IMG/VR virus record: IMGVR_UViG_2700989507_000006
Source of the DNA: a virus
Lineage: Duplodnaviria > Heunggongvirae > Uroviricota > Caudoviricetes
Strand: one strand, 5' to 3'
DNA: 64,000 nt
The translations under genes and the position numbers were made by a program. Positions 1 to 923 of the stretch are shown here, in pieces. Below the pieces are notes generated by a model, which saw only the letters and a list, made by a program, of their open reading frames with translations, made no database searches and was not told the origin of the DNA. How positions within the stretch are numbered: position 1 is the first letter of the stretch; the number at the start of each line of letters is the position of its first letter.

Positions 1-335
1 GTACAGAATGCGCCGCCGATGTATGGCGTACCGTACTTTTTAACCATGTCCATAAACGGTTTAAGCACCGGCATTCGCGTCTGAATATCCTTTGGTTCCC
101 ATTCCGTATAACCATTTGGCTGCCCAAGTTCTGGATTTATATCGACCTGCAACACCGTTAGCGGTACGTTCCAGAACTTCACAACCTCACGAATAAAGCG
201 ATACGTCAGAGGATGTTCACAGCCGGTATCCATAAAAATGAAATGGACGCTAGCGCCAGCTTTTCGCCGTGCTTCCATCAGATGAACGAGATAAGCCGAT
301 GTTCGTCCACCTGAAAAGCTGACGACTTGATGCAT
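1..335 (-). CDS. PP-loop ATP-pyrophosphatase / PAPS-reductase-like protein, N-terminal part (gene continues past window start)
   Basis: Minus-strand ORF from ATG 333-335 (MHQVVSFSGGRTSAYLVHLMEARRK...FIFMDTGCEHP), SGGxxS PP-loop-type motif; open to position 1; begins 10 nt after the stop of the upstream gene. Confidence 0.5.
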   Translation of the reverse strand, partial: MHQVVSFSGGRTSAYLVHLMEARRKAGASVHFIFMDTGCEHPLTYRFIREVVKFWNVPLTVLQVDINPELGQPNGYTEWEPKDIQTRMPVLKPFMDMVKKYGTPYIGGAFC

Positions 336-344
336 ACTCACGGT

Positions 345-923
345 TTATTCCTGAATGCGCTTAAACTCGATTACCCATACCAACGGGTTAGATAGCCAGT
401 TATCCTGCCCGTAAATACTGCGCCAGATATCACCAAAACCAACGCGATAAACAGCTTCAGATGGCGTAATCTTGTACGTCGCCGGAGTTGCGCCTTCTGC
501 TTTAGCATCTGCCTCGCTCATGTCATGCAGCCTTTCCACACGCACGTCGGTAATTTCCAGAAGAATGCGCGATGCCCAGCGCGGCATGTGAATTGATGGC
601 GTCCACTTTTCTGATACTGGTTTATTACAAACCTCGACCGGAACCCGGTGCGTTTGTTCTGTCCAGGAGTTACGCACGCTTGCGCGATAAACCAGCGTTG
701 CGACGTCCGTCGCTTTGCCATGTACCCGGTAGGTTTCGCGAACCCAAATACGATCGCCCGGTTGACCATATGGACAATGCTTAGCAAGCAACTCTGCGGC
801 CACTGCCCGTCCATAGAATTTTTCTTCAACAATCCTGCGAGTCTGTGTTTTATTCCCGCCAAGAATTGCCCGGACCATCTCATCGTTGAAAATCATGCCG
901 CGCTCTTTCACTTCGCCTTTCAT
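345..923 (-). CDS. ASCH/PUA-like domain protein
   Basis: 192-aa ORF; GGNKTQTRR (GxKxxxR, ASCH-type signature) near N-terminus. Confidence 0.4.
   Translation of the reverse strand: MKGEVKERGMIFNDEMVRAILGGNKTQTRRIVEEKFYGRAVAAELLAKHCPYGQPGDRIWVRETYRVHGKATDVATLVYRASVRNSWTEQTHRVPVEVCNKPVSEKWTPSIHMPRWASRILLEITDVRVERLHDMSEADAKAEGATPATYKITPSEAVYRVGFGDIWRSIYGQDNWLSNPLVWVIEFKRIQE

Follow-up and report, generated by a model that had tools for sequence, protein, structure and literature searches.

Gene organization at the left edge

The window, i.e. the whole stretch of 64,000 nucleotides that was analysed (IMG/VR record IMGVR_UViG_2700989507_000006), is that of a P1-like (Punavirus) phage-plasmid. Nucleotides 489-1700 show 95-98% identity to phages SJ46, RCS47 and P7, and nucleotides 868-1700 approximately 97% identity to P1. 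The genes at its left edge are all located on the minus strand and transcribed leftward; the features recognized there are as follows.

1118-1624, minus strand: pap, specifying a protein with a HAD_PNKP phosphatase domain
1102..1118, minus strand: C1 repressor operator ATTGCTCTAATAAATCT, corresponding to OpmgT (former Op88) of P1 and Op(hea) of P7 (consensus scan and P1/P7 annotation)
1074..1146, minus strand: promoter region of the pmgT operon (consensus scan and position of the P1 counterparts)
933..1019, minus strand: small ORF of 28 amino acids with an AGGAG ribosome-binding site (sequence)
345..923, minus strand: pmgT allele of the P7 upf86.8 type, 192 amino acids, ASCH-fold (orthology and motif)
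489..599, no strand: recombination junction within pmgT (blastn comparison with L003, L257 and L258)
1..335, minus strand: 5' part (111 codons) of an orthologue of lambda ninC (PF01507, phrog_424 and identity to lambda)

The operator agrees with the 17-bp asymmetric C1 consensus ATTGCTCTAATAAATTT at 16 of 17 bases, with a single mismatch, and shares one base with the stop codon of pap. The window contains ten such sites, where chance would give 0.3. In P1 the same position carries OpmgT and the promoters P1pmgT and P2pmgT, and in P7 it is annotated as Op(hea). A consensus scan revealed one sigma-70-like site (-35 at 1146-1141, -10 at 1122-1117), which is weak since 2.4 were expected. Judging by position from the P1 annotation together with the sequence, the counterparts of P1pmgT and P2pmgT, TTGATT (1102-1097) and GAAAAT (1079-1074), would be located at the operator or a short way downstream of it.

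Between the operator and pmgT lies the 28 amino acid ORF, MNTAFKIIMAAIYFWLFSITFGGIVAHG, the product of which is hydrophobic. AGGAG is found 8 nt upstream of it, and it would extend to 44 amino acids if read from the ATG at 1067. Its counterpart in phage SJ46 is labelled "membrane protein"; searches of Pfam and PHROG gave no match. The initial annotation had placed pmgT and ninC immediately downstream of a C1 operator; the operator is indeed there, but this ORF intervenes. The presumed 5' leader between the operator and pmgT also contains a 10-bp GC-rich hairpin (1047-1069), and an Rfam search of nucleotides 1-3000 returned nothing credible.

The stop codon of pmgT (TAA, 347-345) and the start codon of ninC (ATG, 335-333) are 9 nt apart, so that the two genes are closely spaced and do not overlap. 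The transcription unit does not end with them. In the near-identical plasmid L001 (CP148519) ninC is followed by small ORFs, ead/Ea22-like genes, a DUF551 gene and eaa, and at least 10 further genes on the same strand lie beyond the pair. The operator thus governs a long operon and is not specific to pmgT and ninC, contrary to the earlier suggestion that the two genes possess an operator of their own.

Elsewhere in the window the product of ppp (3960-4652, minus strand) contains GDLHGC and GNHE motifs, is metallophosphoesterase-like and is annotated in P7 as a Ser/Thr protein phosphatase. This gene and pap, with its polynucleotide-kinase-type 3'-phosphatase domain, flank the head and sheath genes. 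Genes for tRNA-Thr and tRNA-Asn are located at 16108-16261. The co-occurrence of pap, ppp, phage tRNAs and an ASCH gene suggests a possible RNA-repair or tRNA theme.

PmgT, a divergent ASCH-domain protein

The 192 amino acid product of pmgT shows 84% identity to P7 Upf86.8 and 43% overall identity to P1 PmgT, the first 20 residues of which are the same. It matches phrog_874 (E-value=1.8e-83), a family of unknown function. A representative search (E<=0.001) placed 42,792 clusters at 50% identity in the PmgT family, almost all without a Pfam assignment; the diverse homologues described below were taken from this search, two other homologue searches having given almost only near-identical E. coli sequences.

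The gene had been assigned to the ASCH/PUA-like proteins from its translation, and this is upheld by the fold and by the characteristic octapeptide, though the score against Pfam ASCH (PF04266; 15.3 bits, E-value=0.034) is below the cut-off of 21.2. Among 86 diverse homologues 11 gave a Pfam ASCH match, weak in every case, and a profile search of PDB sequences with PmgT gave no match. PmgT fits the PUA-like beta-barrel fold of the ASCH superfamily. The octapeptide GxKxx[E/T/S]xR, as defined in a 2026 ASCH preprint, is present as G23-N-K25-T-Q-T28-R-R30, which is the threonine form of E. coli YqfB, and GxKxxTxR is retained in 80 of the 86 homologues. In the alignment K25 and R29 are invariant, while G23, T26, Q27, T28 and R30 are each at least 90% conserved. 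Further towards the C-terminus are a conserved D139-A140-x-x-E143-G144 and a strand, VIEFK, identical to that of YqfB.

Alignment of the PmgT profile to YqfB with hhalign was confined to the C-terminal block (14% probability) and placed E143 on YqfB Glu74; a global pairwise alignment of the two proteins missed the N-terminal motif because of insertions. At the sequence level the Thr-Lys-Glu triad of YqfB and its Arg oxyanion residue are conserved in PmgT as K25, T28, R30 and E143. In YqfB, Lys21, Thr24 and Arg26 are essential, and the change Glu74Ala cuts turnover 100- to 1000-fold (PMC6972931). The 2026 preprint reports in vitro removal of ac4C34 from bacterial tRNA by each of the 19 ASCH proteins that it examined.

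Judged by its sequence, PmgT is a divergent ASCH-domain protein in which the catalytic Lys, Thr, Arg and Glu of YqfB are retained. Most likely it would bind modified cytosine, whether of RNA or of DNA, and hydrolyse an N4-acyl-type group; the best reading of these residues is a putative amidohydrolase of the N4-acyl-cytosine type or, failing that, a protein that reads modified cytosine. Our literature search, which extended to ASCH proteins together with PAPS reductases, found no functional study of PmgT.

The neighbours of pmgT were tabulated within two genes of the gene in 134 PmgT lineages. C5-cytosine DNA methylases (16 + 6) and MT-A70 proteins (7) are the most lineage-diverse of them, and not PAPS reductases; RecT (7), Ead/Ea22 (6) and DUF4406 (5) were also recorded. 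Since C5-cytosine methylases are such frequent neighbours, modified cytosine in DNA is a possible target of PmgT. We offer tentatively, as an idea which is more probably wrong than right, that the PmgT family may be a widespread phage branch of YqfB-type ASCH amidohydrolases that would erase an N4-acyl or related cytosine mark early in infection, acting either on ac4C34 in the elongator tRNA-Met of the host or on modified cytosine in DNA, and may do so together with a NinC-type PP-loop enzyme in some mosaics.

A C5 or MT-A70 methylase lies within two genes of a PmgT-family ASCH gene in 29 of the 134 lineages, in temperate phages. Examples occur among loci L092-L250 (L213:757-2499 and L123:281-2188), at L052:4651-5241 and in F116 (L005:1-2579).

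In the P1 reference (NC_005856; L334:889-1818) PmgT is 309 amino acids long and its gene overlaps pmgU by approximately 200 nt. The last conserved strand is precisely the point at which this protein departs from the rest of the family (WV-TRLATIR versus WVIEFKR). The end of the P1 reference gene looks like a frameshift or a 3' replacement, which would remove the final ASCH strand.

NinC, a cysteine-rich PP-loop protein

The ninC ORF opens with the ATG at 335-333, and 111 of its codons are read before it runs out of the window at base 1. The interruption is due to the window boundary and the gene is not truncated in nature; near-identical plasmids carry it in full, for a product of 290 amino acids. 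Over 111 residues the window protein is 84% identical to lambda NinC; the complete protein from the 99.5%-identical plasmid L001 is 80% identical to it over 285 residues. A "NinC" of Stx phages shows 95% identity. NinC matches phrog_424 (E-value=1e-31) and, with residues 4-70 only, the Pfam PAPS_reduct domain (PF01507; E-value=5.9e-9). The initial description of a PAPS-reductase/PP-loop gene running out of the window was therefore correct, and the gene can be named from its identity to lambda.

NinC possesses an intact N-terminal PP-loop, SGGRTS, of the SGGxDS type on an adenine-nucleotide alpha-hydrolase fold. In 81 aligned homologues SGGxx[ST] is intact in 79, GNCxxC is found in all 81 and CxExC in 79, and C113 and C126 are invariant. 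These conserved cysteines suggest a metal or Fe-S site; the CxxC and CxxxC motifs possibly form an Fe-S or Zn site.

It had been proposed that a profile search would separate the PAPS-reductase, TilS, QueC and DndC families. NinC fell below the cut-offs of the CysH, TilS, QueC and DndC models, and indeed below every NCBIfam cut-off. It scored 11.5 bits against QueC (PF06508; cut-off 22) and 17.5 bits against the DndC model TIGR03183 (cut-off 290). Its best match in the PADLOC defence library is SspD (E-value=1.8e-13, residues 3-146). NinC was considered as a member of a DndC/SspD system, and this candidate was rejected on the DndC score, on an SspD match limited to the N-terminal half and on the lack of annotated partner genes in the flanks inspected.

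The usual location of ninC is the lambdoid nin region, where its flanking genes are O/P, RusA or NinB towards one end and Q towards the opposite end, and where no ASCH gene is present; it also occurs in the early-left region of Stx phages. The gene sits among DNA-transaction genes and not among sulfur genes. The commonest neighbours of NinC specify a DUF2303 protein, a protein weakly similar to YfbR-like HD proteins, and Ea22. In many lambdoid prophages of E. coli (L308:2435-2995 and 53 other ninC loci), ninC is immediately preceded by a gene for a 187 amino acid protein with a weak match to YfbR-like 5'-deoxynucleotidase (HD) of 24.6 bits, below the cut-off of 25.9. A DUF2303 gene is found two genes upstream of ninC in many E. 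coli lambdoid prophages.

Two NinC-family proteins, P0349 and P0378, are fusions of the PP-loop domain to a C-terminal Dam (PF05869) adenine methylase, which hints that NinC acts on DNA. The former is encoded by Vibrio phage 44E38.1 (L091:5001-6440). In lambda ninC is non-essential and dispensable for growth (PMC10695390), and the literature search, which included PP-loop proteins and PAPS-reductase/methylase fusions as topics, found no functional study of NinC. From the motifs and the gene context we infer that NinC is most likely an enzyme that adenylates a nucleic acid, probably DNA, and modifies it, possibly with sulfur transfer.

Probable mosaic origin of the pmgT-ninC arrangement

The initial annotation regarded pmgT and ninC as a coupled pair in a base-modification pathway. 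Loci of both families were therefore compared. A NinC-like neighbour was found in 7 of 80 IMG/VR loci of close PmgT relatives, six of them near-identical to the window and the seventh being L070, and PmgT lies upstream of the gene in 11 of 79 ninC loci, those checked further being P1-like plasmids. None of 80 loci of F116-type PmgT relatives has a directly adjacent NinC-like gene (one lies at 1.5 kb), and 1 of 79 loci of Vibrio-type relatives has one (L182, in reversed order); in the L070-type NinC-like lineage PmgT is present at 3 of 38 loci. P1, P7 and most P1-like plasmids carry pmgT without ninC, no ninC-like DNA being detectable in the P1 and P7 records, and lambda and the Stx phages carry ninC without pmgT. 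In Erwinia, Oceanimonas and Vibrio prophages ninC is likewise found with no ASCH gene. Lack of conservation had been named beforehand as the outcome that would count against the pair, and it is because the pair is not conserved that the claim fails.

The window itself reveals how the two genes may have met. By blastn, nucleotides 1700-489 are P7-like (96.6% identity) and nucleotides 599-1 are of the L257 type (97%), the two overlapping at 489-599, which places a crossover inside pmgT. Alleles 97-99% identical in DNA sequence to that of the window are followed by Ea22 genes in NZ_CP085058, and by a ninC remnant of approximately 60-70 nt in pS51_2. At least 80% of nucleotides 1-1100 was covered in only 13 of 977 matching plasmids. 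Remnants of ninC occur in L332 (pS51_2, NZ_CP015997; 2990-3074) and also in L013 and L014. They keep the first 20-40 codons, joined to small ORFs which normally lie 3' of ninC, and look like clean in-place deletions.

We consider it rather likely that the left edge holds the beginning of the pmgT (Op88) operon, repressed by C1 and carrying lambdoid cargo, in which PmgT and NinC are mosaic neighbours, each of them probably acting on nucleic acids. C1 would keep the operon silent in the lysogen, and lytic growth would turn it on. The order of its parts would be the operator and promoter, the 28 amino acid membrane peptide, the pmgT allele, and then the lambdoid cargo, of which the lambda ninC orthologue is the first gene. 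Recombination in the 3' third of pmgT would have brought pmgT and ninC together and so account for their adjacency. PmgT and NinC are not obligate partners.

The principal alternative is that the two proteins form a two-component pathway in which the ASCH protein recognizes or prepares a base that the PP-loop enzyme adenylates and substitutes. The 9-nt gap, the shared transcript and the fact that both families plausibly act on nucleic acids speak for it, as does the recurrence of the arrangement: a PmgT homologue adjoins a gene of the PAPS-reductase family in at least three separate settings, namely several allele combinations in P1-like plasmids (L001, L251 and L257), prophages of the L070 type, in which the NinC-like partner is only 29% identical, and L182/L373, with the gene order reversed; L352 and L357 are further cases with divergent partners. 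Because of this recurrence with divergent NinC-like partners a small share of the probability is kept for a loose functional link. Against the pathway, most members of either family lack the pair, the pmgT allele of the window is also known without ninC, ninC has been deleted in place elsewhere, and each gene occurs without the other in the phages and prophages listed above. Fusions of ASCH and PP-loop domains were absent from the 150 best PmgT relatives and from the 120 best NinC relatives. A NinC-like gene was present in the 3-4 kb sampled flanks of approximately 5% of PmgT loci, which is near chance by a rough estimate, not a computed one. A nucleic-acid role is plausible for each protein taken singly, but the pathway of two is unsupported and we regard it as unlikely. 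Less probable again is the role implied by the P1 name of PmgT, "putative morphogenetic function". P1 and UniRef annotations call the protein morphogenetic and its gene comes after the head and sheath genes; however, it has an ASCH enzyme or reader fold with a conserved catalytic motif, its homologues elsewhere lie in early, recombination or methylase regions and not in structural modules, and its operon is under C1 repression, the P1 annotation giving it sigma-70 promoters. A part in virion morphogenesis is accordingly improbable.

Two more specific proposals concern NinC. One is that it might be a sulfate-assimilation PAPS/APS reductase, i.e. a CysH-type auxiliary metabolic gene product. The PF01507 match, however, is restricted to residues 4-70. 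The CysH family is defined by the C-terminal catalytic motif ECG[LI]H, and in it the ATP-binding PP-loop is degenerate. NinC presents the opposite picture, the motif being found in 0 of 81 homologues and the PP-loop being intact. CysH-type NCBIfam models scored 12.8-21.4 bits against cut-offs of 154-254 (NF002537, 21.4 versus 154; TIGR00434, 14.3 versus 165), TilS, NcsA, TtuA and LarE are almost equally good matches to the fold, and no sulfur-gene context is seen, all of which makes this function very improbable. The other proposal, the speculative link drawn in the initial annotation, is that NinC is a TilS-like lysidine synthetase serving the CAU-anticodon tRNA of the phage. Such a tRNA is indeed present (14404-14479, minus strand). 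It had been taken for tRNA-Ile, while ARAGORN calls it tRNA-Met; its sequence closely resembles E. coli tRNA-Ile2 (ileX). It carries C4:G69 and C5:G68, which are TilS determinants, and is probably a lysidine-dependent decoder of AUA. With these determinants it should be a substrate of the host TilS. It lies 13.5 kb from ninC, in a different transcription unit, NinC scored 15.5 bits against NF007942 (cut-off 606) and 13.9 against TIGR02432 (cut-off 93.6), and its 290 amino acids compare with 311-462 in the TilS structures matched. Moreover, ninC is present in lambda and no ninC-like DNA was found in the P1 and P7 records. The lysidine link is thus the least probable of the explanations weighed here, and the best reading of the sequence would make NinC neither a sulfate-assimilation enzyme nor TilS.

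What remains is an arrangement whose parts were already known: the pmgT operon of P1 carrying a known lambda gene, with the apparent pair a product of mosaic recombination. The by-products are clearer functional hypotheses for two old orphan genes. P1 pmgT is unlikely to be morphogenetic and specifies an ASCH-fold protein of a very large phage family with the catalytic residues of YqfB, while lambda NinC would be a PP-loop enzyme that uses ATP, is rich in Cys and stands nearest to the enzymes of DNA phosphorothioation. These predictions would correct the widespread annotation of "cysH auxiliary metabolic genes" in phage genomes.

Relation to known systems

P1 PmgT and P7 Upf86.8, products of the first gene of any size in the operon governed by OpmgT/Op88, are specified at the same position as the window gene, just after pap and the C1 operator. 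The P1 protein has 309 amino acids versus 192 in the window, and the 3' third of the window gene comes from another lineage (the L257 type). Beyond pmgT, P1 continues with pmgU and pmgV, whereas the window continues with lambdoid cargo (ninC and ea genes).

YqfB of E. coli (N4-acetylcytidine amidohydrolase; PDB accession numbers 1TE7 and 9KYF) is encoded by a chromosomal gene acting in ac4C catabolism (PMC6972931), whereas pmgT belongs to the early genes of a phage. With its large insertions PmgT has nearly double the length of YqfB, and it scores below the Pfam ASCH threshold; its activity is predicted, unlike that of YqfB.

Lambda NinC (nin-region ORF-290) and the full-length copy of the window orthologue both consist of 290 amino acids. 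In lambda the gene lies between ninB and ninD, but in the window it follows pmgT in a P1-type C1-controlled operon. SspD and DndC share with NinC the PAPS-reductase superfamily, an intact PP-loop and conserved cysteines; they differ in that the flanks inspected around ninC contain no annotated SspA/B/C or DndA/D/E partner, and in that the SspD alignment extends over its N-terminal half only.
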